The translations under genes were made by a program, and so were the position numbers. Below the pieces are notes generated by a model that was given only the letters and a program-made list of their open reading frames with translations, was not told where the DNA came from and did not search any database. This document shows, one piece after another, positions 12,298 to 40,027 of a stretch of 64,000 nt of DNA. Every line of letters starts with the position of its first letter. The first letter of the stretch is position 1. This DNA is from Candidatus Omnitrophota bacterium (lineage in GTDB: Bacteria > Omnitrophota > Gorgyraeia > Gygaellales > Profunditerraquicolaceae): the NCBI GenBank assembly GCA_030650425.1, contig JAUSED010000008.1, positions 196,554-260,553 on the forward strand. The letters are read 5' to 3'.

Positions 12298-12358
12298 TAA
12301 TCCGCTATAAAATCCTTCCTAAAACCCAAAAGAAGCAATTTTATACCAAAAAAAATAT

Positions 12359-12387
12359 TTGACAATATGCTCTACAAGAAATAAAAT
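12359..12387 (+). promoter_or_regulatory. Sigma70 promoter TTGACA-17 nt-TAAAAT upstream of the PAS kinase gene
   Basis: Consensus -35 hexamer at 12359-12364 and -10 at 12382-12387. Confidence 0.45.
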
Positions 12388-12452
12388 ATATTGAAGGAAT
12401 TGGGCGTAAAAGATTATTTTACGGAGAAAAAGCCGATAAATAGCTATTCTAT

Positions 12453-13715
12453 ATGAAAATAACAAAGAAAAAGAGAACGAAAAAGCCCTTATTGAGAAAT
12501 AAAATCCGCAACGGTGAGCGCGTGCGGCTTGAGGGGGTAGTTAAGCAACAGGCCGCTGAACTGAAAGAAAAAAACGGGCAATTAAGGAATGGGGCAAGGA
12601 AGCAACTAAGGTCAGAAGAGCAGATTCATATCCGCACTAAAGCGATGGAATCGGCAGTTGACGGTATTTTTATTATCGATGTCAAGAAGCCGGATTTTCC
12701 TGTTATCTATGCCAACCAATCATTCCAGAAGATGACCGGTTACGCGAAAAACGAAATCCTGGGCCGAGGTTATTTTTTATCCTATGGGGCTGACGCCGAT
12801 CCTCATATTATTGAGGAAATAAAACACGCGATACATCAGGGTAAATTTTTCTATAGAGAGATGCTTAGCTTTCAAAAAAATGGCAAGAAATATTTGAATT
12901 TATTGCGCGTTACACCGGTGCGTGATACCCGCGGTGGCGTCACTCATTATGTAGGGATTCAGACAGATGTCACTCTGATGCGGGAGAAGGAGTTGGAGAT
13001 TGACGAACAGCGCGAGGAGCTTTTGCATGTTACCCGGGTAGGGAAACTCGCGGAATTTGTTTCTTCGCTTGCCCATGAAATCAGCCAGCCTCTTACGGCT
13101 ATTCTTTCTTATTCTCAGGCTGCCCAGCGCATACTCTTAGATAGAGAACCTGAACTACAGAAGATTCTTTCGTACATTATTAGCGATGACCAGCGCGCGG
13201 CCGAGGTTATCCAGCGGCTGCGTTCACTGTTAAAGAAGAGCGCGCCTGAGATGAGGCTGTTGGATATCAATGCCCTTATCAATGAGACTATTGTGATTAT
13301 TTCAACCGATGCCACCGTAAGGAACGCTGTCGTTAAAACCGAGTTTGATGCTAATCTTCCACTTGTCCGCGGCGACCGGATACAATTGCAGCAGGTCATC
13401 CTGAATCTTATCAGTAATAGTTTCGATGCCATGGAGAACAGCCAAGGGGAGCGTGAAATATTGATTCGCGCGTCGCGTAAAGATAGCGGTAGGATTGTCG
13501 TAGAGGTGAAGGATTCCGGATGCGGTATCCCCGCGAAAAATATACCTAAGCTTTTCACTCATTTTTTTACCAGTAAAGCGGATGGTTTGGGTATGGGTTT
13601 GTCGATCAGCCGTTCGATTATTGAGGCGCATGGCGGACAATTGGACGTAGAAAACAATCCTGAACGCGGAGCGACCTTTTATTTTACCATTCCTGTTGAT
13701 AAAAATGATGCTTAA
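12453..13715 (+). CDS. Cytoplasmic PAS-domain sensor histidine kinase
   Basis: PAS (FQKMTGYAKNEILGRGYF), H-box HEISQPLTAI, N-box LISNSFDAM, G-boxes DSGCGIP and GLGMGLSISRSIIEAHGG. No TM segments. Confidence 0.8.
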   Translation: MKITKKKRTKKPLLRNKIRNGERVRLEGVVKQQAAELKEKNGQLRNGARKQLRSEEQIHIRTKAMESAVDGIFIIDVKKPDFPVIYANQSFQKMTGYAKNEILGRGYFLSYGADADPHIIEEIKHAIHQGKFFYREMLSFQKNGKKYLNLLRVTPVRDTRGGVTHYVGIQTDVTLMREKELEIDEQREELLHVTRVGKLAEFVSSLAHEISQPLTAILSYSQAAQRILLDREPELQKILSYIISDDQRAAEVIQRLRSLLKKSAPEMRLLDINALINETIVIISTDATVRNAVVKTEFDANLPLVRGDRIQLQQVILNLISNSFDAMENSQGEREILIRASRKDSGRIVVEVKDSGCGIPAKNIPKLFTHFFTSKADGLGMGLSISRSIIEAHGGQLDVENNPERGATFYFTIPVDKNDA

Positions 13716-14342
13716 GTGAGTAATCCCGGGCCTACTATTTATATCGTTGATGATGATCTCTCTGTGTGCAGGGCCTTGTCCTTATTGTTAAAGTTACACG
13801 GATTCAAGCCGCAGACGTTTACGCGCTCCGCGGATTTTTTAGCGTGTTCGCATCCTAAGGTCCCATCGTGCCTGGTACTCGATATTCGCCTTCCGGATAT
13901 CAACGGGCTTGCCCTGCAGGATGCTATGGCAGAGCGGAAACTGATCATCCCGATTATCTTTATCACCGGGCATGGGGATATCCCGATGAGCGTGAAAGCT
14001 ATGAAGGCTGGAGCTGTTGATTTTCTTCCCAAGCCTTTTACTGAAAAGAAGCTGCTTAATGCTGTTACCGCCGCTATTTTAAAAAGCAAGGCTCAAAATA
14101 GAGAACAAGCCGAAATATCAAAAATTAAGCGCCGCGTTAAAACTTTGTCTCCGCGGGAACTAGAGGTTTTTCGGCTCGTAGCTAAGGGGATGTTGAGTAA
14201 GCAGATCGCCCGTAAACGGGGAACCAGCCTTCAGACGATCAAAGTCCACCGCGGCCGGGTTATGCAAAAGATGCAGGCTAAGACCGTCACTGAACTTATC
14301 CGCTTTGCCCAAAAATGCGGCATTACTCCTCCTGAGCGCTAA
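13716..14342 (+). CDS. FixJ/NarL-family response regulator (receiver + LuxR-type HTH)
   Basis: IYIVDDD...LDIRLPDINGL receiver; LSPRELEVFRLVAKGMLSKQIARKRGTSLQTIKVHR HTH. About 78% identical to the paralog at 22845..23471. Confidence 0.85.
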   Translation: MSNPGPTIYIVDDDLSVCRALSLLLKLHGFKPQTFTRSADFLACSHPKVPSCLVLDIRLPDINGLALQDAMAERKLIIPIIFITGHGDIPMSVKAMKAGAVDFLPKPFTEKKLLNAVTAAILKSKAQNREQAEISKIKRRVKTLSPRELEVFRLVAKGMLSKQIARKRGTSLQTIKVHRGRVMQKMQAKTVTELIRFAQKCGITPPER

Positions 14343-14400
14343 TTATACCTGAGTACAATTGATTTAATTCCGATATATTTCTATAATCACAGTATAAGAT
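14341..14400 (+). promoter_or_regulatory. Copy 1 of the conserved promoter/operator element (tacaaTTGATTtaattccgatatatttcTATAATca), upstream of the pilus-like cluster
   Basis: TTGATT at 14359-14364, 17-nt spacer, TATAAT at 14382-14387. Shares the upstream ATTATACCTgAGTACAATTG block with copies at 21545-21615, 23505-23570 and 25901-25955. Confidence 0.5.
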
Positions 14401-14468
14401 TATTCACAATTCACTGCCTTACTTATAGCCAGGCTTTAAAGTTTGCCTGAAGAAGATTGCGGGTGAAT

Positions 14469-15863
14469 ATGCGTAAAAATAAATATTTAACAGCGCTAAT
14501 TCTGATTTTATCATTTTTAGCCGTTTCTTTGCCTGTTTTAGCCGCGGATATTTTTGACCTTACTTATACGCTTACCGAAGGCGGATATCAGTTAGAATTA
14601 AATCCTGTTAATTTATATAAAGGCGTTAATTTAAGAGTGGATACCAATATCGGCAGGCGCTACGAAATTATTCAAAGAATTATTCAGCCGTTAACAAGCA
14701 AAGATAATCCCGGGGTAATGATTCAGGATAATTTTGTGGTGCGCGGTATAAGCGGTTCCAATAGATTCGGGAACCTGCGTTTCTCTACCGGCGGTATAGC
14801 CGTAAGGTCAGAAGATATTATCTACGTTTCTGATAGCGCGGGTGACGCGGATAATTTTTCTTTAGTCTATGGCCTGATTAACGCGGAAAATTTACAGCCT
14901 GGGTATTATTCAGGGCGTGTTAGTTTTACTTTGAATCCTATTTCGTCAAGCCAGCAGCAGATTACCAGGATTTTAGAGGTGTATGTATCGATAACGGCTC
15001 AAGGCCGGGAAAAGCCCCGCGTTGAGATAAGCGCTTCCAGCGGCTCAAAATCTATAACGCTTAACCCTAAAAAAGAAAAGAATCAAGCGAAAGAGGAAGT
15101 TTTTATAAAAATTAATTCGACTGAGAAAAAGCAATTCAGTATAGTCCAGTTTGTGCCCGAGCCCATGGAATCAGAATCCGGGGATATTCTGGATAATCAA
15201 GCGGTAAATTTTATAGTAAGAAACGCGGAAAAAGGCGTGTCAACAAATATGGTTAGCGCGTTAACTTCCAGTCCGCAGAAGATTTATACTTCCGGTATTG
15301 ACGGCAGCGCGGATAATTCTCTGGTGGTTACATATATCTTAGGGGACCTAACGGCTAAAAAATCAGGAAAATATAAATCTCGCGTACAGTATTTATGGGA
15401 AGAAGCAGGCGCGCAGACAAAAATAGACAGCTTAGAACTGTTGATTGATAACGAGCGGATATTTAATTTGATCGTCACTCCTGCGGATCAAAAATACGAA
15501 ATTGAATTCCGCGGCCTTAAGCCTTTGGGCCAGCCTAAGGCCAGCGAGGTAATCTTAGAGGTTACCAGCAATACCGGTAAACCTTATCAAATAAATCAGG
15601 AGATATCCAGCGGCTTGGTGAATAAGGAGGGGTTAGAGATTCCTGCTCAATATTTTACGCTGCGTACTGAAAATATTAATAGCAAGGGCAATTTTAAATT
15701 TCTTGAAAAGCAAGAAGTAAAAAAAGGCAATACTATTTTGTTTGTTTCGGATAGCGAAGGCGCGCCCGCCAAGATAAAAGTTATTTACGAATTGACTAGC
15801 CCTGTGGATTTAAAAGCGGGAGACTATCTGGCTAATGTTACCTATTCTTTGTTAGAGATGTAA
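14469..15863 (+). CDS. Secreted multi-domain protein with three SCPU/pilin-like repeats (candidate tip or minor pilus subunit)
   Basis: Signal peptide. Each ~150-aa module ends with a G-x-Y-x-x-x-V-x-(Y/F)-x-L strand (GYYSGRVSFTL, GKYKSRVQYLW, GDYLANVTYSLL), as in the C-terminus of the 197-aa subunits. A TTG start at 14457 is also possible. Confidence 0.45.
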   Translation: MRKNKYLTALILILSFLAVSLPVLAADIFDLTYTLTEGGYQLELNPVNLYKGVNLRVDTNIGRRYEIIQRIIQPLTSKDNPGVMIQDNFVVRGISGSNRFGNLRFSTGGIAVRSEDIIYVSDSAGDADNFSLVYGLINAENLQPGYYSGRVSFTLNPISSSQQQITRILEVYVSITAQGREKPRVEISASSGSKSITLNPKKEKNQAKEEVFIKINSTEKKQFSIVQFVPEPMESESGDILDNQAVNFIVRNAEKGVSTNMVSALTSSPQKIYTSGIDGSADNSLVVTYILGDLTAKKSGKYKSRVQYLWEEAGAQTKIDSLELLIDNERIFNLIVTPADQKYEIEFRGLKPLGQPKASEVILEVTSNTGKPYQINQEISSGLVNKEGLEIPAQYFTLRTENINSKGNFKFLEKQEVKKGNTILFVSDSEGAPAKIKVIYELTSPVDLKAGDYLANVTYSLLEM

Positions 15864-15952
15864 CTTGTTTAATTATCAGGAAGGGGGGCAAGGTATTTGT
15901 TGGTTAGGTTGAATTAAAAATCAGGATTTGTTTCATTAAAAGGAGGAAGGCT

Positions 15953-16546
15953 ATGAAAAAAAGAATTATTTTAGGAGCAGCGGGTTTGGTGCTTGGGTTG
16001 GCGTCACTGTGTTTTGCCGCCACAAGCATAAGGATAGCAGCTACCATCGGTGAGACGCATCAGATGAATGTAGCTTTAAGTAGAGTCGCAAGCCAAGGCG
16101 CGACCCCGACTCTGGTTGCTGATCTTACGGGTACAGGCATGGATTTTGGCACATTGACAGAAAATCCTACGGATCATAATTTCAGGTCGACTGTTTTTTT
16201 CTTTATAGACGCGCCTGTAGTTTCTAATAAAACAGGCTGGACTATAACTCACACCGCCACTGATTTTGCAAATTCCGCGGGTAATAATTTAAACGCCAAC
16301 ACGAATGTAACGTTTATGAAGGCAGTTCCCGGAGGGGAAACCGCGCTTACTGGTAATAGTTATGTCAGCTACTCGGCGGCTAAAACAAGAGCGGCAATCG
16401 CGCAAGCCGAGCTTACCGGCGGCTGGTTAAGAATTTATTACGGTATCGCCCAAGGCTCCCTCGACGCGCCCGGCGTTAATGTTATTACTACGGCTATGCC
16501 GACAGGCAGTTATGTGGGGACGGTAACTTTAACTCTTTCTCCGTAA
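15953..16546 (+). CDS. Secreted 197-aa pilin-like subunit (Spore-coat-U/Csu-type archaic chaperone-usher subunit-like), paralog A
   Basis: Signal peptide, a Thr/Ser/Asn/Gly-rich beta-rich body, C-terminal GSYVGTVTLTLSP. About 70% identical to 17554..18150. Confidence 0.5.
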   Translation: MKKRIILGAAGLVLGLASLCFAATSIRIAATIGETHQMNVALSRVASQGATPTLVADLTGTGMDFGTLTENPTDHNFRSTVFFFIDAPVVSNKTGWTITHTATDFANSAGNNLNANTNVTFMKAVPGGETALTGNSYVSYSAAKTRAAIAQAELTGGWLRIYYGIAQGSLDAPGVNVITTAMPTGSYVGTVTLTLSP

Positions 16547-16570
16547 GCGGGGTAACTTTATTAAAGCATC

Positions 16571-16617
16571 AATGCCGGAAGAACAGCCTTAAAAAAGCGT
16601 TTTGTCCTTCCGGCATT
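16571..16617 (+). promoter_or_regulatory. Intergenic hairpin (11-bp stem aatgccggaag/cttccggcatt, ~25-nt loop) between subunit A and the chaperone-like gene; candidate partial terminator or attenuator setting subunit stoichiometry
   Basis: Perfect inverted repeat followed by GTTGCTTTATCTT. Confidence 0.35.
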
Positions 16618-16645
16618 GTTGCTTTATCTTAGCTCAAGGAAAATA

Positions 16646-17533
16646 ATGAAAAAAACTATGTTTAAGCGAAGTATGATTATTTTATTTCTTTTATGCCTAG
16701 CGGGATTTTTAAGTTTAGCTGGCGCGGTAGACCTTCCCAATATCAATAAATCAAAGATAAGGTTTTCTATCGCTCCGGGAAAGGCTGAATATGGAGAAAT
16801 AATTGTGGAGAACCAGAGCGCTGAGCCGCGGAGCATGCGGGTATATTTGTCGGATTGGGATTATTTACCTCCGGCTGATGGCACCAAAGAATTTTTACCG
16901 ATTAGCTCAACACCTCTATCTTGCGCCGCGTGGATAAGTTTCTCTCCCGCGGAGTTTATTTTGCCCCCATTTAGTAAACAAAAAATAGATTATTCCGTTA
17001 AGGCGCCTGCCGGCGCCTCCGGCGGTTATTATGCCGCGTTATTTTTTGAAAGCATCTTCGCCAAAGCGCAAGCCCCCAAGGAAGGGATGCAGGTGGGGAT
17101 GAATCTGGTGATCAGGATTGCCACTCTTTTTTATGTCGACGTAGAAGGCACGGTTAAGAGGACAGCTTCAATCGATAACTTATTATTTAAGAAAGACGTT
17201 GGAAAGGTTCAGTATTCTATTGGGTTGGATTTTCGTAATACCGGAAATGTCGATATTAGCGCGGGGGGCACATTTCATATAATGGACGATAAGGGTATGG
17301 TCATTGCCAGAGGCGAGTTGAATGATGCCTATACTTTTCCCGCGGCTGGCGCTAAGCTGGCCGCGACACTTAAAGAGGGCCTTCCGAAAGGCAAGTATGA
17401 TTTAGTTTTCACCCTAGATTTAGGCAAAGCGCTTGAAGAAGCAAATATAGGCAGAGGGCCGATTATCACCAAAGAAGCCGAAATATCAATTGGCGAAAAC
17501 GGTAAGATTTTAAATATTGGCCAGTTAAAGTAA
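16646..17533 (+). CDS. Secreted Ig-fold protein, candidate periplasmic pilus chaperone (PapD/CsuC-like)
   Basis: Signal peptide. The N-terminal segment KIRFSIAPGKAEYGEIIVENQSAEPRSMRVYLSDWDY fits the chaperone F1-G1 pattern (R-V-I-Y ... V-x-N ... S-W). Size and position (between two subunit genes) match a chaperone. Similarity is weak. Confidence 0.35.
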   Translation: MKKTMFKRSMIILFLLCLAGFLSLAGAVDLPNINKSKIRFSIAPGKAEYGEIIVENQSAEPRSMRVYLSDWDYLPPADGTKEFLPISSTPLSCAAWISFSPAEFILPPFSKQKIDYSVKAPAGASGGYYAALFFESIFAKAQAPKEGMQVGMNLVIRIATLFYVDVEGTVKRTASIDNLLFKKDVGKVQYSIGLDFRNTGNVDISAGGTFHIMDDKGMVIARGELNDAYTFPAAGAKLAATLKEGLPKGKYDLVFTLDLGKALEEANIGRGPIITKEAEISIGENGKILNIGQLK

Positions 17534-17553
17534 GATGAAAAAGGAGAAAGAAG

Positions 17554-18150
17554 ATGAAGAAAATAATATTTTTAGGAGCAGCGGGTTTGGCGCTGGGGTT
17601 GGCTTCATTGTGTTTTGCTGGCACAAGCATAAGAGTAGCAGCTACCATCGGTGAAACGCATCAGATTAATGTGGTCCTCAATAGAGTCGCAAGCCAGGGC
17701 GCGACCCCGACCCTGGTTAGCGATCTTACAGGCACAGGCATGGATTTTGGCACATTGGTAAAAGGCGCGGATAATAATTTCAGGTCGCCTGTTTATTTCT
17801 TTATAGACGCGCCTGTGGTTTCTAACAAAACAGGCTGGACCATAACTCACACCGCCACTGATTTTGCCAATTCAGCGGGTAATAATTTAAACGCTAACAC
17901 GAATGTGGTATTTGAGAAGGTGGATAACTTAACTAATTCGGAACTCGCGCTTGGGAATAATTACTTTACCAGCTACGCGGCAGCTAAAACAAAATCAGCA
18001 ATTACGCAAGCTGAACTTGCGAACGCCCGCTTAAGAATTTACTACAGTTTAGCCAGCGGCGCCGGAGACGCGGCAGGGGTATCGGTTATCACCGCGGCTC
18101 AGCCGACAGGCAATTATGTGGGGACGGTGACTTTGACTCTTTCTCCGTAA
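17554..18150 (+). CDS. Secreted 198-aa pilin-like subunit, paralog B
   Basis: Signal peptide, C-terminal GNYVGTVTLTLSP; paralog of 15953..16546. Confidence 0.5.
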   Translation: MKKIIFLGAAGLALGLASLCFAGTSIRVAATIGETHQINVVLNRVASQGATPTLVSDLTGTGMDFGTLVKGADNNFRSPVYFFIDAPVVSNKTGWTITHTATDFANSAGNNLNANTNVVFEKVDNLTNSELALGNNYFTSYAAAKTKSAITQAELANARLRIYYSLASGAGDAAGVSVITAAQPTGNYVGTVTLTLSP

Positions 18151-18151
18151 G

Positions 18152-20947
18152 ATGAAAAAGTTTAGCGTCATTTTATTAATTTTGATTTTTTTTTCCTCCT
18201 TCGTTTTGCCTTCCCATAGTTACGCTCTTGTGCCGGAATACCTTTGTGAAACCGGGATTAAGTTTTACCAGCAAGGCAGGTATAGCGAAGCCCTGCAGGA
18301 ATTTAATAAAGCCCTGTTAATCGCGGCTAATTATGAGCCTGCCTTAAAATATATCCATAAGATTCAGGCATTAGAATTCCAAGAGCCGCCGGAAGAGAAA
18401 AGCATTGAAATAAATTTAGAGCCCTCCCGCAAAAACCCTATTCTAGAACGAGAAATCGCCATGGAAAGGGCGCTAAAAGTTATTAGCCGCAAAAATCCTA
18501 TCCTAGAACGGGAAGCCGTAATGGAAAGAGTACTCAGGTTAGAAGAAAAGAAAAGGCGAAAAGCCCTCTTGTCCCAGCCAAAAGTTCTTACCCTTGATGA
18601 ATTATTAGCTAAGCTAACCGGTGCTTTAGAAATTGAGCAGGGTAAGAGTTTAAGCCTGCATAGCTCAGGTATGCGGCGATTTTTGGTCACCCAGCCGGAT
18701 ATTATCAGGGTGGAAAGAAATACCTCTGAGCAAATATTAGTCACGGGTATTAATCTTGGCTATACCTATTTACATGTTTGGGATGCTAACGGACGCCATA
18801 CTTTGGAAATTCTTACGGTTCCTGCTAAGCCAGAAGGAGAATCATTAGAAGATATATCGCGCCGGGAAGAAGAAAAAGCGAGAAATTTTAAACTGACTTA
18901 TTCTATGGATTGGTCCACTTATGCTACCGGCGCAAGATGGGCTGCTTTAAAACGTTCGAATTATTATTACATCCATAATTTAGGGTTGGCCGGAGAGACG
19001 CCATACGGAAACCTTGATTCATCGCTGGCGGTAAACCGCTATAATAGCCTTACGGAGCTTACGCATTATACTTTGGGCTTAACTAACGGTAAATTTGGCG
19101 ATTTTAAGGATTTTACCCTGCGCGCTTTTGATTTTTTTGACATCCCTCCGGATTTTTCTAACCTCGCTTTCCCCGGGATACCCTTAAGGGGGGCTATGCT
19201 TGCTTCTCCGGCATTCAATAATAAGCTTAATTACACTGTGTTTTCCGGTAAAGAAAATTGGTCCGGATTTGCCGGTCTCTCTCCCGCGTTAAACCAGGAA
19301 AGGAAGGCCTATTTAGAAGGATTGAATATCGGCTTTACTCCCACGAAAAAGCAAAATTATAAATTTACCTTAATTCACGGCTGGGGCAAGGATCGAGGCC
19401 CGGCGCTTAAATCTTTAGGCTATGATTTAATGGGTGATTGGCTTTTAGATAAGTGGAAATTGGGGTACGAGTCGGCCAGCGATACAAAAAATTTTGCCAA
19501 TCTTTTAAAAATAGATTATCTCCGGCCAAATTTAAGTTTTAACGCGCAATTAAGGGATATTGATAAGGGTTTTGAGAGCATAACCGGGAGCGGATGGAGC
19601 CAGGGGCAGTTAGGCGGGCTGTTTAATTTTAATTACAGGCCTTGGGAAAAATTAGAAATATATAGCAGTTTGGATCTTTTTAAAGACAGGTTATATCCGG
19701 CTCCGGGAAACAATAATCGTTGGAATGAGGATTTTAACTGGAATAGCGTTTATAGGGTTGACCCCCTAACTTCATTATCTCTAAACTACACTTTGCAGAA
19801 TGAATTAGGCAGGATTTCACAATATCGTTATCAAAGCATAGACGCGGGCATCAACCGGACTTTTAAGTTTTTTAAAGATGTAAATTTATTCCTCAAATAT
19901 TATGATCAGCAGAATACAAATTTTTCTTCCCCTGTTTCTAGTTACAGTAACCAACGCGTCTATGCGGGAGCCAAAATTAATCTTACGCGCGATTTATACT
20001 ATTACGCGAACAAAGAGATTAATTGGTTAACTGAAAGATCTAGCGGTAACAAGACTCAGCCTCAAGCTTTTGAAACAGGGCTGGATTGGAGCGGGCAGAT
20101 TGGTAAATCGCCTTTGTTTGGGGCTTGTCGTTTCACCTACAGGGATGAACAAGATACGACGTCAAATTTAAGTTTTCTTTCGGGTGAGGATTATATCGAA
20201 GGTTATTCTGAATTATCTTATCGGCCGACTACAGATACTCAAGTTTACGGTTCTTGCCGGGTGCGCAATGTTTGGGCGGATAATCCTAATGTGAATAAGC
20301 GCCTGGAAGCAAGTTTTAACGCGGGTATACGTTTTCTTTGGGATACGGGTATAAATTGGCAGGCAGTTGGCGATATTGATGGATATGTGTTTAAGGACCT
20401 GAATTATGATGGGATAATGGAAAGGGATGAGCCTCCGGTAGAGGGAATAAAGGTGCGGTTGGGCAGGAATAGGACTGCCGTGACAGATATCTTTGGTTAT
20501 TATCAATTTAAAAATGTCCGGGGTAATAAAGTTTATGTTAATTTAGACACTGCTACGATACCAAATGGTTTCGTGCTGACTGTTCCGGCAACTCAAGGCG
20601 TCTCTATCAGTCAGTATCAGACCGCGCGGGTGGATTTCGGCATAATCTCCCGTTCTGAAATATTCGGCTATGTCTTTGAAGATTTAGACGGTGATAATCA
20701 GCTTGATAAGAAGGATAAAGGAATCCGCAATGTTGTTATTATATTAGAAGATGGCGCCAAAAGGACTACGGATAGCGGCGGTAAATATTCATTCTCGAGT
20801 GTTTCCTCTGGCGAGCATGAGATAACCTTAGATTTAAATACTCTGCCGGTTTATTATCTGCCCAAGACAGTTTTGACAAAAAAAATCACCCTTTTTGAGG
20901 GTGTAGCCTATAATTATAATATTCCTCTGAAAAGAACTAAAGAATAG
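18152..20947 (+). CDS. Large outer-membrane protein (931 aa): signal peptide, N-terminal TPR, pilus-formation pil_N/BON-like domain, central beta-barrel-like region, two C-terminal Cna-B/SdrD-like beta-sandwich domains. Candidate usher or secretin-like pilus export component.
   Basis: Starts 2 nt after subunit B. The pil_N-like segment is VTQPDIIRVERNTSEQILVTGINLGYTYLHVWDANGRHTLEILTV. The middle has alternating aromatic/polar stretches. The two C-terminal repeats are DIDGYVFKDLNYDG...YYQFKNV and IFGYVFEDLDGDNQLD...KYSFSSV. Confidence 0.45.
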   Translation: MKKFSVILLILIFFSSFVLPSHSYALVPEYLCETGIKFYQQGRYSEALQEFNKALLIAANYEPALKYIHKIQALEFQEPPEEKSIEINLEPSRKNPILEREIAMERALKVISRKNPILEREAVMERVLRLEEKKRRKALLSQPKVLTLDELLAKLTGALEIEQGKSLSLHSSGMRRFLVTQPDIIRVERNTSEQILVTGINLGYTYLHVWDANGRHTLEILTVPAKPEGESLEDISRREEEKARNFKLTYSMDWSTYATGARWAALKRSNYYYIHNLGLAGETPYGNLDSSLAVNRYNSLTELTHYTLGLTNGKFGDFKDFTLRAFDFFDIPPDFSNLAFPGIPLRGAMLASPAFNNKLNYTVFSGKENWSGFAGLSPALNQERKAYLEGLNIGFTPTKKQNYKFTLIHGWGKDRGPALKSLGYDLMGDWLLDKWKLGYESASDTKNFANLLKIDYLRPNLSFNAQLRDIDKGFESITGSGWSQGQLGGLFNFNYRPWEKLEIYSSLDLFKDRLYPAPGNNNRWNEDFNWNSVYRVDPLTSLSLNYTLQNELGRISQYRYQSIDAGINRTFKFFKDVNLFLKYYDQQNTNFSSPVSSYSNQRVYAGAKINLTRDLYYYANKEINWLTERSSGNKTQPQAFETGLDWSGQIGKSPLFGACRFTYRDEQDTTSNLSFLSGEDYIEGYSELSYRPTTDTQVYGSCRVRNVWADNPNVNKRLEASFNAGIRFLWDTGINWQAVGDIDGYVFKDLNYDGIMERDEPPVEGIKVRLGRNRTAVTDIFGYYQFKNVRGNKVYVNLDTATIPNGFVLTVPATQGVSISQYQTARVDFGIISRSEIFGYVFEDLDGDNQLDKKDKGIRNVVIILEDGAKRTTDSGGKYSFSSVSSGEHEITLDLNTLPVYYLPKTVLTKKITLFEGVAYNYNIPLKRTKE
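18425..18544 (+). repeat. Tandem 60-nt direct repeat inside the OMP gene, encoding SRKNPILEREIAMERALKVI / SRKNPILEREAVMERVLRLE
   Basis: cgcaaaaaccctattctagaacgagaaatcgccatggaaag versus cgcaaaaatcctatcctagaacgggaagccgtaatggaaag, 60 nt apart. Confidence 0.8.
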
Positions 20948-20948
20948 C

Positions 20949-21236
20949 TTAGCGGCTATAAAGCGTTTCTAAATCAAGTAAAAGTTTTTCTCCCGCGATA
21001 ACCCTTATTTCTTGGGTGTCTTTCTGGAAGATTGCCGGAGAGTTAGCCTGTTCTTTTGTGTTTGTAACCCTAGGCTCCTGAAGAATAGGCATATTTTTTC
21101 CGGGTATAGCAGGGATAATGCAGGATATTCTTACGGAATAACTATTGTCAGCTGCCATTACCGGATATAATAATGCCAAGGTGAATACCGCGGATATAAT
21201 CAGCCTAAGCGTTATTTTTGTAAGTTTCAGCTCCAT
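20949..21236 (-). CDS. Small secreted protein (95 aa), the only minus-strand gene in the window
   Basis: ATG at 21236 with a GGAG RBS on the minus strand; signal peptide LRLIISAVFTLALLYPVMAA. Convergent with the OMP gene. Confidence 0.35.
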   Translation of the reverse strand: MELKLTKITLRLIISAVFTLALLYPVMAADNSYSVRISCIIPAIPGKNMPILQEPRVTNTKEQANSPAIFQKDTQEIRVIAGEKLLLDLETLYSR

Positions 21237-21263
21237 TTTATCCCCCACTCCTTAAATCCCTCA

Positions 21264-21296
21264 ATAAAAAAGCCCTAAGGCAAACCCTTAGGGCTT
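21264..21296 (-). terminator. Minus-strand intrinsic terminator hairpin (agccctaagggtttgccttagggct followed by TTTTTTATT on the minus strand). It lies upstream of the minus-strand gene start, so it may be a leader or attenuator element.
   Basis: 10-bp perfect stem. The T-run is on the minus strand only. Confidence 0.4.
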
Positions 21297-21544
21297 ATAG
21301 AACAAAAAACCTTGAGGCAGGCTCAAGGTCTAAGATCACCCTTTGGCAGCCAGGCTGTCCTTATCTTTTAAGGATCCTTAGCTTTGCGTCCTACCCTTAC
21401 GGATAGTTTGCCTTTATCAGTAGCTTAAATACTCAAATTGTCAAATGCGCGATTTTACCTTATTCCTATAGTAAATATAACATATTTTTGGCGAATTTAC
21501 CAATTTTTTCCCCAATCACTTCCAAGACAAAATTTTCCCGCTCC

Positions 21545-21615
21545 GGTACCGTAAAATCTTACGATTATACTTAGGTACAATTGATTTAATTTCTGTCACT
21601 CCTATAATAAAATTG
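21545..21615 (+). promoter_or_regulatory. Copy 2 of the conserved promoter/operator element (gtaaaatcttacGATTATACtTAGGTACAATTGATTtaatttctgtcactccTATAAT)
   Basis: TTGATT 21581-21586, 16-nt spacer, TATAAT 21603-21608; about 65 nt conserved with copy 4 and partially with copies 1 and 3. Confidence 0.55.
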
Positions 21616-21682
21616 TGAAGCTAGAAGGGTTCCGTAAAAAACTGGCCGGCCGGATCCAGCCCGCGGGCGAAGGGAGTGAATC

Positions 21683-22678
21683 ATGACCATTCTTATTGTG
21701 GACGATAACGAGCCAAATCTCTGTCTACTCCAGGTTCTCCTGAATGGAAACGGGCATCAGGTTGTCAGTGCCGCCAATGGCGCCGAGGCGTTAGCCAAGG
21801 CGCGGCAGAATCCGCCGGATATTGTCGTCAGCGACATCCTGATGCCGGTGATGGACGGGTTCGCCTTGTGTCGTGAATGGAAGAAGGACGAACGCCTGCG
21901 GCAAATCCCGTTTGTTTTCTACACCGCGACCTACACCGATGAGCGCGATCGAGAGTTCGCGCTCAGTCTTGGCGCGGAGCAATTTCTCGTCAAACCGGTG
22001 GAGCCGAAGGCCTTCATGCGAACGATTCTGGAAGTCATCCAGCAAGTCCAGCGTCCGTCCGCAGCGCCGACCCGCGTGCCGATCGAAGCGCCGCGGCAAG
22101 AGGAAATCGGCTATCTGAAACAATACAACGAGGTACTTATCCGTAAGCTAGAAGCGAAGATGGAGCAGTTGGAGCAGGTCAACCGCGAACTGGAACGCGA
22201 CATCACCGAGCGCAAGAAGACGGAAGCGGAATTGAAAAAGTCTGAACAGGAATTGCGCGAAGATAAATTGCTTTTGGAACAGAAGAACTTAGCCCTGGCG
22301 GAATTATTAGAGCATATGGAAAGGGCTAAGAATAAGACAAAAGAAGATATAGCGATAAATGTGGAAGAATTCATAACGCCGATTTTAAAGAAACTAAAAA
22401 TAAAAGGCGCCTCACCTAAATATATTAAACTGCTCGAGCATCATTTGAAGGAATTAATCTCGTCTTTCGGCCGTAAGATAACACAAAGAAGCACGAGGTT
22501 ATCATCTCGAGAAATTGAAATTTGTGACATGATAAAAGGCGGCCTTTCCAGCAAAGAAATTTCTGAACTTTTAAATGTATCCTACCAGACAATAGACAAG
22601 CACCGCAGAAATATCAGAAAAAAGCTAGCCATAGCTAAGAAAAAAGTTAATTTAACCTCTTTTCTGCAAAAACTCTAA
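21683..22678 (+). CDS. Response regulator: CheY-like receiver, coiled-coil linker, C-terminal LuxR/GerE-type HTH. Chimeric composition, with the 5' ~570 nt GC-rich and the 3' part AT-rich.
   Basis: ILIVDDNEPN...VVSDILMPVMDG receiver; LSSREIEICDMIKGGLSSKEISELLNVSYQTIDKHRRNIRKKL HTH. A sharp GC shift occurs near nt 22250. Confidence 0.7.
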   Translation: MTILIVDDNEPNLCLLQVLLNGNGHQVVSAANGAEALAKARQNPPDIVVSDILMPVMDGFALCREWKKDERLRQIPFVFYTATYTDERDREFALSLGAEQFLVKPVEPKAFMRTILEVIQQVQRPSAAPTRVPIEAPRQEEIGYLKQYNEVLIRKLEAKMEQLEQVNRELERDITERKKTEAELKKSEQELREDKLLLEQKNLALAELLEHMERAKNKTKEDIAINVEEFITPILKKLKIKGASPKYIKLLEHHLKELISSFGRKITQRSTRLSSREIEICDMIKGGLSSKEISELLNVSYQTIDKHRRNIRKKLAIAKKKVNLTSFLQKL

Positions 22679-22717
22679 TCCGCAAAAATTTAAGCGCTGT
22701 ACCCCCCCCATAATGTG

Positions 22718-22740
22718 ATTGGGTATATTATATACCCAAT
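22718..22740. promoter_or_regulatory. Perfect 11-1-11 palindrome ATTGGGTATAT-t-ATATACCCAAT upstream of the second FixJ-like regulator gene; candidate dimeric HTH operator
   Basis: Seen directly in the sequence, 105 nt upstream of the ATG at 22845. Confidence 0.45.
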
Positions 22741-22844
22741 ATCTACCCATTAAACCCACGTTGCAAAAAATCCTTATATAAGATACTTTAGATATCGCGA
22801 ATAAAGAACAGTACTCTTACCTTTATACTCATAAGGACGCTTAA

Positions 22845-23471
22845 ATGAACAACCGCAGGTCTATTATCTATATCGTTGATGACGATGTCTCTGTGTGCAG
22901 GGCTCTATCTTTATTGTTAAAATCACACGGGTTTAAGGTTGAGACGTTTACGCTCGCGGCAGACTTCCTGGCATTTAAGCGCCTTAAATTGCCATCGTGC
23001 TTGATCTTGGACATCCAGCTGCCGGATATCAATGGGCTTGTCCTTCAGGAAACAATGGCCGCACGACAACTTACGATTCCCATTGTTTTTATCACCGGAC
23101 ATGGCGATATCCCAATGAGCGTTAAAGGCATGAAGGCAGGGGCTATTGATTTTCTTCCTAAACCCTTTACTAAGAATAAACTACTTGATGCCGTAACCTT
23201 GGCCATCTCAAAAAACAAAATCCAAATTAAAGAACAAGCCGAAATAGCAAAAATTAAGCGCCGCATCAAGACCTTGTCTCCGCGAGAACTAGAAGTTTTT
23301 CGACTCGTAGCCAAAGGGATGCTGAGTAAGCAGATTGCTCGAAAGCGGGGAATTTCTCTCCAGACGATAAAGATTCACCGTAGCCGGGCGATGCGGAAGA
23401 TGCAGGCTAAAACCGTGACTGAGTTCATCCGCTTTGCCCAAAAAGCAGGTGTTACTTCCCCCCAGCGTTAA
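22845..23471 (+). CDS. FixJ/NarL-family response regulator, paralog of 13716..14342
   Basis: IYIVDDDVSVCRALSLLLK ... LSPRELEVFRLVAKGMLSKQIARKRGISLQTIKIHR; 208 aa. Confidence 0.85.
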   Translation: MNNRRSIIYIVDDDVSVCRALSLLLKSHGFKVETFTLAADFLAFKRLKLPSCLILDIQLPDINGLVLQETMAARQLTIPIVFITGHGDIPMSVKGMKAGAIDFLPKPFTKNKLLDAVTLAISKNKIQIKEQAEIAKIKRRIKTLSPRELEVFRLVAKGMLSKQIARKRGISLQTIKIHRSRAMRKMQAKTVTEFIRFAQKAGVTSPQR

Positions 23472-23504
23472 GTAAACTTTAATACTTCAAAGATACAATT
23501 TTCC

Positions 23505-23570
23505 TGCGAGGCAATAGTAAAATCCTACGATAATACCTAAGTATAATTGATTATATTTTTATTTTTTGTA
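23505..23570 (+). promoter_or_regulatory. Copy 3 (degenerate) of the conserved element (gtaaaatcctacGATAATACCTAAGTATAATTGATTatattttt) upstream of the autotransporter gene
   Basis: Shares the gtaaaatcYtacGAT(t/a)ATAC block and TTGATT with copy 2. The -10 is less clear. Confidence 0.4.
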
Positions 23571-23648
23571 AAGTACCTCTAGTTATAAGAAAATGAAAAT
23601 ATTACCAATTTCAGTTATTGAGCGCAAACTCAAAAAGGGGGTAATGCT

Positions 23649-25838
23649 ATGAAGCGAATACTTTTTCTCCTGTTTTTCGTTGCTGCTATGGTGGTTTGGT
23701 GTACGCCGAGTTTTGCTGTGCAAACAGTTAACCCTGCCGGTGATACTTTGAGCGCCACCGGTGTTTCTGAGGGAGTCTTTATGAACGATGGGGGACTTGC
23801 GGATCTCTTGACTGTTGGGGCGCAGGATATCTTTACAAACAACAAAGCTAGCGAGGGTGTTGCTACGGACAAAACTCTATCTGCTGTTTACACCACCAAC
23901 TCCGCTAAATCCAGTATAACCATTACCGGTAACTCGACTGTGTATGGAAGAATCAGCGGTATAGATCCCGCAGGTGAAAAAACATTTGTCCTCATCACCG
24001 CAGGCGCTAGCGGCAATACGGTAAATTTTCTTGGAAGGGTCAATGCGACGGAAGTGGATATCGGAACCGGTACAGTAAATTTCAAAAGCGGAAACTCGAG
24101 TGACGCGAAAACGGTTATTACTGGTGTCGGCGGCACGCTCGGTCTTGATGTGAATACGACAGTCGTAGGCGCTCTCACGACTACGGCGGGAGACAATACG
24201 GGTACGTTGTCGCTTGCTAGTGGTAGTCAATTGACTGGCGCCGTTGGAGCAGGTGCTGCTAAGGTTCATACTATCAATGTTGTTGGGGGGAGTAATACTG
24301 CCGGGGTGAGAGCAGACATCGTTGGCGCGGTCTACACCCATGAATTTTCACTCTTGACGAATCATTTGGCTATTGACGGCGCTTTCACAATCGCTGCTGC
24401 CGGGACATTTAATACGACCCTGGCCGGCACGGCCTTGACGCAATACGGCCACATCACTGCGACCGGAGCCGCAAACATTGGAACAGGGATCGGGGTTCAA
24501 GTGACTGTTCCCGCGGGGACGTACATTCCGCTGGGGACCCTGTTTGATGTCGTCAACGCTACCGGCGCCATCACTGCTGATATTATTCCCACGATAACAA
24601 CCGTAGGTGATACCAATCCTCTTTATACGTTTGACGTCGAGCCTATCACTGGTACCGCAGCGGGTAAGTTAACAATAAAGACTACCGGTACACCGATACA
24701 GCCAGCGGATCCTGTTCCGGATCCTGTAGCCAATGCAGCAGCGCCTGCTTTAGGAGCTCTTCCAGCGACTGCCCCTGTTATAATTGCAATTAATGCTCTT
24801 ACTACTCCAGGCGCGGTCGCTAGCGCAGAAGCACAGCTTGCTCCGTCAACCGCGTCTTTAGCATCGCCTTTATTGACATTTCAAGGAGTTAGAGAGTTTC
24901 AGACTCTTTGGTTGAATCGTCTGGACGCGTGTGGTCAGGTTAGCTGGCCCAGCGAAAATAAAGAGAACTGTAAAGGCAGCACTGCTGATAACGGCTGGTG
25001 GCTGAAAGGCTTTGGATATTTTGGTCATCAAGATAGCAGAAGCGGTTTTACGTCGTATGATGCCAGCATTCTCGGCTCTATGATCGCTTACGACAGGTCT
25101 CTTGGCCTTAATACGCGCGCGGGCGTAGGACTTGGTTATGCTCGAACTAATATACAAGGAAAGGTGTACGACGCCAACACGCAAACCGATACCTATCGAG
25201 CAGTAGCTTACATTGGTCATGAGTTTTGGTCTTGGTTCGTTGATGCTAGTGGGTCATTTGGTTGGAATGAATACCGGGATAGGCGCCACGTTGAATTTCC
25301 CGGTATGGATACTACGGCGAAAGCCAAGTATGACGGACAGGATTACACTGCTTTTGGAAGGGTCGGGTATCATCTCCCCGCTTTTCATGAATTTATTGCC
25401 ACGCCGATGGCCTCACTTCAATATACTCGTATAAATATAAGTGGCCGCACGGAAAAGGGCTCTTCTGATGATATCAATATGAAGGTGAGATCTCAGCGTT
25501 ACGATTATCTGGAGTCTGGCTTAGGAGCTAAGGTAGAGCGCCCCTTCAACTATAATAGTAAATTCACGTTTGTTCCTGAGGCGCACTTTGAGTGGCTGCA
25601 TAAGCTTTCTAATCCAAGGATAAAACAGACTACTACGTACGTCGCAGGCTCGGATTCGTTTACAACTCCAAGTTTAAGGACGGTTGCTGATTCTTACCGT
25701 GCCGGAGTAGGCCTCAATCTTCTTTCGTGTGCCTGTAGCGCGACAATATGGTCGGTTGAAGCCGGTTACGACTATTATTGGAGAACTGACGGTTACGCCG
25801 CTAATCAGGTGTCAATGAGAGTCAGCAGGCGTTTCTAA
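23649..25838 (+). CDS. Autotransporter (type Va secretion): signal peptide, Gly/Thr/Ala/Val-rich beta-helical passenger, C-terminal 12-strand beta-barrel translocator
   Basis: Signal peptide MKRILFLLFFVAAMVVWCTPSFA; passenger rich in GT/NT/AG dipeptide repeats. The C-terminal ~280 aa has alternating hydrophobic strands (WLKGFGYFGHQDS..., GVGLGYARTN...) and ends in RRF (terminal aromatic). Confidence 0.8.
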   Translation: MKRILFLLFFVAAMVVWCTPSFAVQTVNPAGDTLSATGVSEGVFMNDGGLADLLTVGAQDIFTNNKASEGVATDKTLSAVYTTNSAKSSITITGNSTVYGRISGIDPAGEKTFVLITAGASGNTVNFLGRVNATEVDIGTGTVNFKSGNSSDAKTVITGVGGTLGLDVNTTVVGALTTTAGDNTGTLSLASGSQLTGAVGAGAAKVHTINVVGGSNTAGVRADIVGAVYTHEFSLLTNHLAIDGAFTIAAAGTFNTTLAGTALTQYGHITATGAANIGTGIGVQVTVPAGTYIPLGTLFDVVNATGAITADIIPTITTVGDTNPLYTFDVEPITGTAAGKLTIKTTGTPIQPADPVPDPVANAAAPALGALPATAPVIIAINALTTPGAVASAEAQLAPSTASLASPLLTFQGVREFQTLWLNRLDACGQVSWPSENKENCKGSTADNGWWLKGFGYFGHQDSRSGFTSYDASILGSMIAYDRSLGLNTRAGVGLGYARTNIQGKVYDANTQTDTYRAVAYIGHEFWSWFVDASGSFGWNEYRDRRHVEFPGMDTTAKAKYDGQDYTAFGRVGYHLPAFHEFIATPMASLQYTRINISGRTEKGSSDDINMKVRSQRYDYLESGLGAKVERPFNYNSKFTFVPEAHFEWLHKLSNPRIKQTTTYVAGSDSFTTPSLRTVADSYRAGVGLNLLSCACSATIWSVEAGYDYYWRTDGYAANQVSMRVSRRF

Positions 25839-25865
25839 GTTGTTGGTTGGTAATTATTGATTTTA

Positions 25866-25900
25866 AAATAGGGGACGTTTCTGAAACGTCCCCTATTTTA
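25866..25900 (+). terminator. Intrinsic terminator after the autotransporter gene: ggggacgtttc-tgaa-acgtcccc followed by TATTTTAT
   Basis: Perfect 11-bp stem with a 3-4-nt loop and a T-rich tail. Confidence 0.7.
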
Positions 25901-25955
25901 TGATTATACCTAGGTACAATTGATTTAATTTCTGTCGTTTCTATAATAACACTAT
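25901..25955 (+). promoter_or_regulatory. Copy 4 of the conserved promoter/operator element (tGATTATACCTAGGTACAATTGATTtaatttctgtcgtttcTATAAT)
   Basis: TTGATT 25920-25925, 16-nt spacer, TATAAT 25942-25947. Nearly identical to copy 2. Confidence 0.55.
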
Positions 25956-26017
25956 GAAGTCAGAAAAGTTGTAGATTAATTAAAGGAAGGCGGCGGTTAA
26001 AAAACAGGAGGTGGGTT

Positions 26018-27190
26018 ATGAAGAAGCTAGCATTAGTACTAGTAGTGGTATTGAGTGTGGCAATCTTGGGTAGAGCGTATGCTGAGACGGTAGGGGCAAC
26101 GGCGCCTATTACCGCGCAGGCGCACAAAGTTTTTGAGGTATATGTGGACAGGAGTTCCCCTGAGAATCACTACATTCTTTCCGGATGGATGGGTGACTAC
26201 GGTGATATTAAACTGAACGATCAGTTTGCGCAGGATTCACATTCAGGTTCTTCCTGCATCGAGTTTGTGTATAGCGCGAAGCAGTCACAAGGGCAGGGAT
26301 GGGCAGGGGTGTATTGGCAGAATCCTACGAATAATTGGGGTTCGAAAAAAGGCGGATTTGATTTAGCCGGTATGAACAAACTTACCTTTTGGGCGCGCGG
26401 CGCAAAGGGCACAGAGAAAATCCAGAAATTCATCGTGGGTGGGATAAAAGGCGTGTATTCAGATTCCGCTGTGGTGGAAATAGGCCCTATAGAGCTTACG
26501 GATCAATGGAAAGAATATAGTATAAACCTTACGGGAAAAGATCTTACCTATATTAGTGGAGGGTTCGGTTGGACAATTACCGCGGATCTTAATCCTCAAG
26601 GGGCTATTTTTTATGTCGATGACATCAGATTCCAGGCAGATCCCGCTATGAAACCCGCGATCAGGGTTCAGGAAGCAATGCCGTTTTATGTCTATCAGGA
26701 TAAAGCTTCCATGAAGAACCATTTTATTCCTTCCGGATGGATGGGGGATTCTGATGATCTAAAACTGGATACCGGCTCAACAGAAATGCCGTATCTGGGT
26801 GATAGCTGTATAAAGATTATCTATAGCGGCAAGGGTGCTCAAGGTGGGCGCTGGGCCGGAATTTACTGGCAGCAGCCTGCGAACAACTGGGGAACGGTGG
26901 ATGCAGGGGTTAATCTTTCTAAGGCTAGCAAGCTTACCTTTTGGGCGCGCGGAGCAAAGGGGGGTGAGCGGATTGAGGAATTTAAGATCGGTGAGATTAA
27001 GGGCGTGTATGGTGATTCTGGCGACGCGGGTATTTACAACATTATTTTGAACAAAGAATGGACTAAGCATACCATCGATTTGAAGGGCAAGGATCTCTCC
27101 TATATCATTGGCGGTTTTTGCTGGGCAATGAGTGCGGATTTTAACGCAGGGGGCGCGACGTTTTATCTGGATGAGATAAGATATGAATAA
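26018..27190 (+). CDS. Secreted protein of two tandem ~170-aa beta-sandwich (CBM/galactose-binding-like) domains
   Basis: Signal peptide. An internal duplication gives H(Y/F)I(L/P)SGWMGD...(C/S)CI(E/K)(F/I)(V/I)YS...W(Q/Q)(N/Q)P(T/A)NNWG...KLTFWARGAKG...(F/F)(I/K)(V/I)G(G/E)IKGVY(S/G)DS twice. Confidence 0.55.
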   Translation: MKKLALVLVVVLSVAILGRAYAETVGATAPITAQAHKVFEVYVDRSSPENHYILSGWMGDYGDIKLNDQFAQDSHSGSSCIEFVYSAKQSQGQGWAGVYWQNPTNNWGSKKGGFDLAGMNKLTFWARGAKGTEKIQKFIVGGIKGVYSDSAVVEIGPIELTDQWKEYSINLTGKDLTYISGGFGWTITADLNPQGAIFYVDDIRFQADPAMKPAIRVQEAMPFYVYQDKASMKNHFIPSGWMGDSDDLKLDTGSTEMPYLGDSCIKIIYSGKGAQGGRWAGIYWQQPANNWGTVDAGVNLSKASKLTFWARGAKGGERIEEFKIGEIKGVYGDSGDAGIYNIILNKEWTKHTIDLKGKDLSYIIGGFCWAMSADFNAGGATFYLDEIRYE

Positions 27191-27239
27191 AACAGCATCG
27201 CGGCAGTTTATAGGGCGGCGAAAAACAAAGGAGCTACAA

Positions 27240-39963: not shown

Positions 39964-40027
39964 AAGGGGAGGGCAATTTATGAAAGGATTTAAAACGGAT
40001 ATCGAAAAAGACACTTTAAAAAAGCAA

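Follow-up and report, generated by a model that had tools for sequence, protein, structure and literature searches.

This 64,000-nt stretch of a Candidatus Omnitrophota genome (contig JAUSED010000008.1, positions 196,554 to 260,553 of the forward strand; the whole stretch is called the window below) raises the question of why a short intergenic block is repeated four times in front of its surface-protein and regulator genes, and which protein reads it. Our analysis indicates that the block is a real but mechanistically ordinary regulon signal, which fronts surface and stress genes across Omnitrophota. We consider it probable that each block is a sigma-70-type promoter with a built-in operator, and that a phosphorylated dimer of RR1 type, named after the FixJ/StyR-like response regulator encoded beside the first copy, would bind it and activate transcription.

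The repeated element and its promoter

The four repeats (E1 to E4) lie between genes on the plus strand and share one anatomy, which consists of an 18-bp inverted repeat (ATTATACC-NN-GGTAYAAT), a -35 hexamer TTGATT and, after 16-17 nt, a TATAAT-like -10 hexamer. The last base of the palindrome is also the first T of TTGATT in all of them. The copies, and the upstream extensions of two of them, are as follows.

14342-14387, plus strand: E1, with the palindrome ATTATACCTGAGTACAAT at 14342-14359, the -35 at 14359-14364 and the -10 TATAAT at 14382-14387; predicted start near 14394
21517-21563, plus strand: upstream extension of E2, CACTTCCAAGACAAAATTTTCCC ... GTAAAATCTTACG
21564-21608, plus strand: E2, with the palindrome ATTATACTTAGGTACAAT at 21564-21581, the -35 at 21581-21586 and the -10 TATAAT at 21603-21608; predicted start 21615
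23484-23529, plus strand: upstream extension of E3, with the conserved block ACTTCAAAGAcAAAATTTTCC ... GTAAAATCCTAcG in common with the E2 extension
23530-23574, plus strand: E3, with the palindrome ATAATACCTAAGTATAAT at 23530-23547, the -35 at 23547-23552 and the -10 TAAAGT at 23569-23574; predicted start about 23581
25903-25947, plus strand: E4, with the palindrome ATTATACCTAGGTACAAT at 25903-25920, the -35 at 25920-25925 and the -10 TATAAT at 25942-25947; predicted start 25954

The first base of E1 is the last base of the RR1 stop codon. When the 21-nt degenerate core TAYACYTRRGTAYAATTGATT was searched with up to three mismatches, E1-E4 were the only sites in the 64 kb, against 0.03 expected from dinucleotide-preserving shuffles of the window, and a stricter 27-nt core gave three window sites against 0.00 expected. 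The repeat search placed E1-E4 in one family (D9) and the pair E2 and E4, which share 76 nt at 83% identity, in another (D10); a profile search of the whole window found no fifth copy. The extension block is present between the regulator stop codon and the element at about ten loci (L016, L019, L021, L034, L035, L045, L046 and E3), and it could be a contact for the C-terminal domain of the RNA polymerase alpha subunit, in the manner of an UP element, or a weak second site. A role as an RNA element, hairpin or terminator was considered and rejected, since the palindrome as RNA leaves a loop of only 2 nt and an Rfam scan of 12-29 kb gave no match overlapping E1-E4 at E ≤ 1.

The element extends far beyond this genome. 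A 20-nt core (ATACYTRRGTAYAATTGATT) was scanned against a 596-Gb public collection holding one genome per GTDB species, and 44 loci were obtained, 38 of which belong to metagenome-assembled genomes (MAGs) of Candidatus Omnitrophota or to close-kin MAGs labelled Planctomycetales. The remaining six matches are inside open reading frames (ORFs) of unrelated bacteria and are not accompanied by a -10 hexamer. By our own arithmetic, which assumes uniform base composition, about 17 chance matches to the core are expected in 596 Gb, so that the six outsiders are ordinary and the excess in Omnitrophota is not. A profile made from the core added copies with other central bases and brought the total to 58 non-redundant elements, with three to six copies in some 8-kb loci (L018, L022 and L017). 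Among the 17 copies that were recovered without the exact pattern, the arms TTATACC and GGTAYAA show almost no variation, and the two central bases vary freely (CT, CC, TT, CG, TG and others). Invariant half-sites around a variable centre are the pattern expected for the site of a dimeric helix-turn-helix protein.

None of the search patterns or profiles used the -10 region. A -10-like hexamer is nevertheless present 15-18 nt past the -35 in 58 of 58 elements, at 16-17 nt in all but a few, and it matches TATAAT at six of six positions in 22 elements and at five of six in 31. At least five matches were thus found in 53 of the 58, against 4% of random positions in the same loci and 11% of composition-matched shuffles. 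The core promoter of E1, E2 and E4 (TTGATT-16/17-TATAAT) agrees with the consensus at 10 of 12 positions, and E3 is the weakest of the four, with four of six matches in its -10. A generic sigma-70 scan of the region gave 33 sites against 28 in shuffles, which is no enrichment, and therefore the case for a promoter rests on conservation and fixed spacing and not on likeness to the hexamers. A general housekeeping type of promoter was also rejected, as there are just four copies among the approximately 55 genes of the window.

Start codons give a second line of evidence. An ATG or GTG that opens an ORF of at least 100 codons lies 4-8 nt past the -10 in 12 of the 58 elements, against 2% of random positions. 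These 12 ORFs belong to five unrelated families, namely single-domain receivers (REC-only), a 375-amino-acid MlaE permease, a 906-amino-acid GGDEF protein, an alpha/beta hydrolase and an iron permease. The coincidence of start codons with the predicted +1 in several families would imply leaderless mRNAs and would independently place the transcription start. Occurrence within coding regions, which had been named beforehand as an observation that would speak against a promoter, was checked in all 58 elements, and no copy is deep inside a gene. Seven are covered by an open frame; in these, the frame of the downstream gene reaches a few dozen bases upstream, except in L034, where the element lies within a stop-free stretch from 279 nt upstream to 60 nt beyond it.

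The original prediction, made from the window alone, had described four near-identical blocks, each with a sigma-70 promoter, in front of a pilus-like cluster, a chimeric regulator gene, an autotransporter and a secreted tandem-domain protein. All four blocks were found where it had placed them, on the plus strand and between genes; only the -10 of the third copy (23569-23574) falls just beyond the end that had been given for it. The promoter claim is strengthened by the -10 at fixed spacing and by the start codons at +1. As the 58 copies above show, the element is phylum-wide and not a local oddity. Two details were corrected. Copies 2 and 4 had been described as identical over about 45 nt, but they differ at 4 of 46 positions and their longest identical run is 26 nt; and the supposed CAATTG core is just the junction of the right arm with the -35, the actual unit being the 18-bp inverted repeat.

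The neighbouring regulator and the direction of control

The genes encoding the candidate regulators and the kinase are the following.

12453-13715, plus strand: sensor histidine kinase of 420 amino acids, PAS-HisKA-HATPase by Pfam, presumed partner of RR1
13716-14342, plus strand: RR1, a FixJ/StyR-type response regulator of 208 amino acids with REC and GerE domains (Pfam Response_reg, E 1.7e-25; GerE, E 4.6e-17)
21683-22678, plus strand: regulator of 331 amino acids with a REC domain, a coiled coil and a GerE domain (Pfam), the first gene after E2
22845-23471, plus strand: RR2, a paralogue of RR1 (repeat family D1, Pfam) of 208 amino acids with REC and GerE domains and the recognition helix TIKIHRSRAMRKM

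The best matches of RR1 in the PDB are StyR (1yio, E 1.6e-47, over residues 5-200 of 208) and then FixJ (5xso, E 7e-40), and its recognition helix reads TIKVHRGRVMQKM, against TVKVHRHNIMQKL in StyR. The protein is 100% identical to one annotated in a MAG of Candidatus Omnitrophota, which places the window in this phylum. The kinase gene ends with a stop codon that directly abuts the RR1 start, and an orthologous kinase is immediately 5' of the regulator at about 19 Omnitrophota loci. Among solved structures, the kinase is matched best by the FixL kinase core and by LOV-type PAS domains, and the best alignments of its PAS domain are with LOV domains (YF1, phototropin and aureochrome). Light sensing by this PAS domain was rejected, because the flavin motif GxNCRFLQ (GRNCRFLQG in LOV) reads GRGYFLSYG here and does not have the photoactive Cys.

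The element is closely linked to the regulator gene. It stands directly 3' of a regulator orthologue (at least 67% identity), 2-62 nt past the stop codon, in 18 of 19 Omnitrophota loci, the exception being L004, where the order is element, REC-only gene, kinase and regulator. In the loci found via the DNA pattern, it is often 2-85 nt past the stop of a regulator orthologue. A motif-independent test was carried out by searching metagenomes with the regulator alignment, which yielded 80 regulator loci covering 561 kb. Seven of the 80 matches are close orthologues (76-81% identical), and all five of these that could be cleanly assessed have the element 6-62 nt past the stop. As for the other two, one contig ends inside the gene, and L051 has a degenerate copy 237 nt downstream, before a REC-only gene. 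In L126 and L128, which were likewise anchored by the protein, the element also follows the regulator.

In the other 73 loci, the regulators are only 44-53% identical and the contigs are GC-richer (median 56% versus 41.5%); these other lineages (metagenome loci L052-L125) are set apart from Omnitrophota by GC content only (48-70% versus 35-49%). The site TATACCNNGGTATA, with up to two mismatches, occurs 35 times in the 561 kb, and 29 of these occurrences are within -20 to +300 nt of a regulator stop. The bare palindrome TATACC-NN-GGTATA stands just after the regulator gene in 29 of 71 assessable loci. All 29 regulators with a palindrome 3' of the gene have a K[VIL]HR recognition helix, and the palindrome was found with none of the 21 regulators that have other helices (KAHR, KFHR, KIQR, KTHR or similar). 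The next gene in the distant loci encodes a REC-only protein of about 125 amino acids, usually starting 50-51 nt from the start of the palindrome, and the junction GGTATA-A-TTG is kept. As they are retained in the distant loci, the site, its geometry and its first target have travelled with the regulator family, in spite of differing partner kinases and neighbouring genes.

Taken together, the palindrome is most likely the docking site of the adjacent FixJ/StyR-type regulator. The proposal that the neighbouring FixJ-like regulators run the regulon, which had been made at the outset, gains support from the linkage in 18 of 19 loci, from the five of five loci found by protein alone and from the K[VIL]HR association, and it is stated here as a prediction from sequence. 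An element is also present 5' of the kinase-regulator operon in three loci (L004:5263(-), L018:5190(+) and L126:8016(+)), which implies autoregulation of the putative operon there. The same was considered for the kinase-RR1 operon of the window and rejected, as the only trace of the palindrome there is a single TTATACC half-site, which precedes a promoter of the form TTGACA-17-TAAAAT (about 12340-12388).

We infer that the circuit works as follows. The PAS histidine kinase (12453-13715) would phosphorylate RR1, probably at Asp56, and possibly also RR2; the phosphorylated regulator would dimerise and then bind the palindrome; and the dimer, centred about 42.5-43.5 bp upstream of the start, would aid initiation by RNA polymerase from a class-II-like position. 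The ancestral and conserved target would be the leaderless single-domain receiver gene, whose product probably feeds back on the kinase or the regulator. The centre of the palindrome is at -42.5 from the predicted start with a 16-nt spacer and at -43.5 with a 17-nt spacer, so the site abuts the -35 and is near the class II position of -41.5. Activation is favoured because the site is wholly upstream of the -35, because the distance from the palindrome to TTG has been kept over deep divergence, because GC-rich lineages have weak core promoters (for example, TTGCGC-17-CAGAAT in L078, with the same palindrome geometry), and because the conserved first target is a feedback-type receiver protein. 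Feedback-type receiver genes are usually induced by the pathway that they damp.

Repression through the same regulator and site is the alternative that survives best, and we judge it unlikely. According to this explanation, the dimer at the -35 would block or trap RNA polymerase at a constitutively strong promoter until a signal arrives. It would suit above all the Omnitrophota core promoter, which is near consensus (10/12 matches), and also the one base common to the palindrome and the -35 hexamer, and StyR is known to repress from some other sites (PMC2442086). However, the site here is entirely upstream of the -35 and neither between nor over the hexamers, the GC-richer lineages with a weak core would need activation, and the spacing between palindrome and TTG, kept across regulators that are 44-53% identical, suggests contact between protein and polymerase. 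The conserved first target likewise belongs to a feedback-type receiver class that is generally pathway-induced.

A second alternative is that the palindrome belongs to a different, unlinked transcription factor and that its adjacency to the regulator is merely conserved gene order. A near-identical orphan motif, TTtaTAcCTAGgTAtaAA, has been predicted in Shewanella with no factor assigned (PMC2532739), which would be in line with this explanation. We nevertheless hold it to be quite improbable, because 29 of the 35 palindrome matches in the 561 kb adjoin a regulator gene despite differing neighbours and kinases, because the palindrome occurs with K[VIL]HR helices only (29/50 versus 0/21), and because the operator architecture fits StyR, the closest characterised relative (PMC5874301). 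The 331-amino-acid chimeric regulator was also considered as the palindrome binder and was rejected, since it has no orthologue in the related loci.

Spread of a small mobile or recombining repeat, such as a miniature inverted-repeat transposable element or a "mobile promoter" cassette that has no dedicated regulator, would account for the 76 nt that E2 and E4 share at 83%, spacer and sequence after the -10 included, and for the copy of the post-regulator spacer carried by E2, by which duplication spread copies within the locus, but it is very improbable given that, apart from the palindrome, neither terminal repeats nor target duplications are present, that only about 45 nt are conserved, that every copy is co-oriented with a downstream gene, that orthologous positions in many species keep invariant half-sites around variable centres, and that the four copies per 64 kb are all beside regulator genes.

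Several points weigh against activation by the RR1-type dimer, which remains our preferred explanation. The near-consensus core promoter of Omnitrophota might not need an activator, which would fit repression or fine-tuning. The first copies were fetched with a pattern that forces the core and the -35 and so inflates their invariance, for which the 17 pattern-free copies are a partial correction. StyR shares K-V-H-R yet binds another half-site, so that specificity is not explained residue by residue. Moreover, 21 of the 50 distant K[VIL]HR regulators have no detectable downstream palindrome, and the helix motif alone is therefore not predictive of the site. Finally, the full palindrome is absent upstream of the kinase-RR1 operon in the window.

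Genes behind the elements and the history of the locus

The genes behind E1-E4 in the window are listed here.

14469-20947, plus strand: cluster of five ORFs for secreted or surface proteins, the last of 931 amino acids with T2SS-T3SS_pil_N and SdrD_B
21615-21686, plus strand: leaderless 23-codon ORF (VKLEGFRKKLAGRIQPAGEGSES, then a stop), which starts 6 nt past the -10 of E2 and has an ATGA overlap with the next gene
23649-25838, plus strand: autotransporter of 729 amino acids, the target of E3 (Pfam Autotransporter, E 8e-50)
25954-25974, plus strand: remnant leaderless ORF (MKSEKL, then a stop), 6 nt past the -10 of E4, which matches the L045 N-terminus MKSEKF...
26018-27779, plus strand: two ORFs for secreted proteins of 390 and 198 amino acids, between E4 and the REC-only gene
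27818-28189, plus strand: single-domain receiver (REC-only by Pfam) of 123 amino acids, the conserved core target

The REC-only protein of the window and the product of the leaderless REC-only gene in L045 are 76% identical, and orthologues are found downstream of regulator and element at 13 or more loci. The position of the 23-codon ORF matches the leaderless start codons of the REC-only genes in L014, L034, L042 and L045. Relatives of the autotransporter in L025 and L022 are also behind an element, and no homologues of the other cargo genes were found in the related loci. A hairpin with a T-run, similar to a terminator, was read in the sequence 3' of the autotransporter at 25866-25897.

In related loci (L126, L127 and L128), the order is kinase, regulator, element, an optional small lipoprotein, REC-only, small stress proteins, patatin, GtrA, acyltransferase and a glycosyltransferase (GT4). 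The window keeps both ends of this order, with the kinase and RR1 on one side and the REC-only gene (27818), patatin (28718), GtrA (30088), acyltransferase (32781) and GT4 (34235) on the other, and has about 13.4 kb of extra genes with their own element copies between RR1 and the REC-only gene. The 5' untranslated region behind E1 has its orthologous counterpart at the lipoprotein gene of L016, L021 and L046, and E2 carries a copy of the spacer that is normally 3' of the regulator gene. Because of these two matches, the 76% match of the REC-only protein and the MKSEKL remnant, the 13.4-kb cargo (the surface cluster, a second regulator pair, the autotransporter and the two secreted proteins) looks like a lineage-specific insertion combined with local duplication. 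E4 would be the old promoter of the REC-only gene, split from it by the two secreted-protein genes, as the remnant matches the N-terminus in L045.

The genes behind all 58 elements include those for signalling (REC-only receivers in nine loci, PAS proteins and a GGDEF protein), for the envelope and surface (MlaE permeases in four loci, autotransporters, PKD-repeat surface proteins, a Wza-like polysaccharide exporter and a collagen-repeat OmpA protein), for stress and metals (Fe/Mn superoxide dismutase, hemerythrin, cupin, DUF3309, an iron permease and a P-type ATPase) and for other enzymes (B12-radical-SAM enzymes and hydrolases). Envelope, surface and stress functions are the theme of this predicted regulon.

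Some further features of the region were observed. Pfam and NCBIfam gave no family for four of the five proteins of the cluster behind E1. Two genes of this cluster (15953-16546 and 17554-18150; 197 and 198 amino acids) are paralogous, with 73-90% nucleotide identity in three segments, and their products have no Pfam or NCBIfam family. A cyclic di-GMP-I riboswitch (c-di-GMP-I, GGC variant; 70.2 bits against the Rfam gathering threshold of 59) is present on the minus strand at 21341-21421, upstream of an ORF for a secreted protein of 99 amino acids (20949-21248, minus strand) and divergent from E2. Owing to this riboswitch, there is a second-messenger switch inside the surface-gene island.

The linker of the 331-amino-acid regulator (21683-22678) has, at 22199-22254, a DITERK...EL motif at the DNA level in common with two PAS repeats (36057-36112 and 36483-36538) of the kinase at 35580-37274, and this regulator may have borrowed a PAS/kinase junction. 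A 94-nt direct repeat (38558-38651 and 40018-40111) with 93% identity was also found, its copies being 1.46 kb apart.

Meaning of the proposed circuit and comparison with known systems

Omnitrophota have never been cultured, and our literature search found no paper on Omnitrophota promoters or regulons. For this phylum, the element offers a concrete promoter architecture, evidence of leaderless genes and a testable pairing of regulator and site. The 18-bp site and the 208-amino-acid protein can be easily tested in vitro, and the pair recurs in other lineages. The motif could also be used for calling promoters, transcription starts and start codons in Omnitrophota MAGs. The list of genes that are likely co-switched is rich in surface and stress proteins, and it bears on the proposed host-dependent lifestyle of these bacteria.

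A wider and more tentative proposal, which we regard as possible without expecting it to hold, is that an old three-part circuit exists across lineages, consisting of a sensor kinase, a StyR-like regulator and a leaderless receiver gene under its direct control. The operator TATACC-NN-GGTATA, one base from the -35 TTG, would have remained unchanged as the regulator drifted apart to about 45% identity, and the circuit of Omnitrophota would have expanded to become the main regulon of surface, adhesion and stress genes. If this is true, autotransporters, PKD adhesins, polysaccharide export, MlaE, superoxide dismutase and hemerythrin would belong to one regulon, and the circuit could govern the attachment of ultra-small, host-dependent Omnitrophota cells to their partners.

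Sites of the NarL "7-2-7" type consist of two inverted heptamers (TACYYMT), 2 bp apart, which are bound by a dimer of a GerE-type regulator. The 7-2-7 layout is the same here, with the heptamer TTATACC instead of TACYYMT, and NarL is a distant homologue of RR1 (E 4e-13). The orphan motif of the computational Shewanella cis-regulatory map of 2008 (motif 48, no factor assigned) is almost identical to the palindrome, and it was the only hit of our literature search for the exact palindrome (PMC2532739). Through this motif, a culturable organism might become available as a model.

Feedback by a receiver domain on a FixLJ system has been described (PMC7078487). The locus here would resemble Caulobacter FixT in having a REC-only protein beside a two-component pair and under the control of the pathway itself. 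It would differ in that the receiver gene is apparently under the direct control of the FixJ-like regulator and is often leaderless; REC-only is the one target conserved across lineages. The likeness to FixL-FixJ itself, by which rhizobia sense oxygen, is that FixJ is the second-best solved homologue of RR1, that the kinase core aligns with FixL and that kinase and regulator are in one operon. On the other hand, the recognition helix of FixJ has EVYR or EVHR, unlike KVHR here, it is the LOV half of the YF1 chimera, and not the haem-PAS of FixL, to which the kinase PAS aligns, and no fixK-type target was seen in this system.

StyR is the nearest known system. It was reported that StyR, TodT and TmoT recognise ATAAAC-N4-GTTTAT, a 16-bp inverted repeat, via Lys175, Val176 and His179 (PMC5874301), and that the Pseudomonas promoter PstyA is activated by dimers of phosphorylated StyR acting from STY2, a high-affinity site at about -40 (PMC2442086), a position similar to that of the palindrome centre here. 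RR1 agrees with StyR in the plan of REC followed by GerE, in being closest to it among solved homologues and in the K-V-H-R core of the helix, and the operators agree in being inverted repeats of 16-18 bp that vary at the two central bases and have ACC/GGT as their inner core. The palindrome here does not follow the StyR/TodT operator consensus ATAAAC-N4-GTTTAT; when ATAAACC-AT-GGTTTAT of StyR is compared with TTATACC-NN-GGTATAA, the outer bases of the half-sites differ and 10 of 16 positions are shared. The helices read TIKVHRG in RR1, TVKVHRH in StyR and TIEVYRA in FixJ, so Lys-Val is kept in RR1, whereas RR1 has Gly and RR2 has Ser at the position equivalent to StyR His179. The TodS and StyS kinases have two kinase modules and an internal receiver, in contrast to the single PAS, HisKA and HATPase domains of the kinase here, and no integration host factor site or distal boxes as in the StyR system were identified at this locus. 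The targets of StyR are in aromatic catabolism, and those here are surface, stress and signalling genes.

These comparisons point to RR1 as a StyR relative with the same geometry and a different specificity group. By analogy, the mechanism would be that of a standard two-component regulator at a class-II position, to which the phylum-wide conservation, the persistence across lineages and the leaderless feedback gene add interest.

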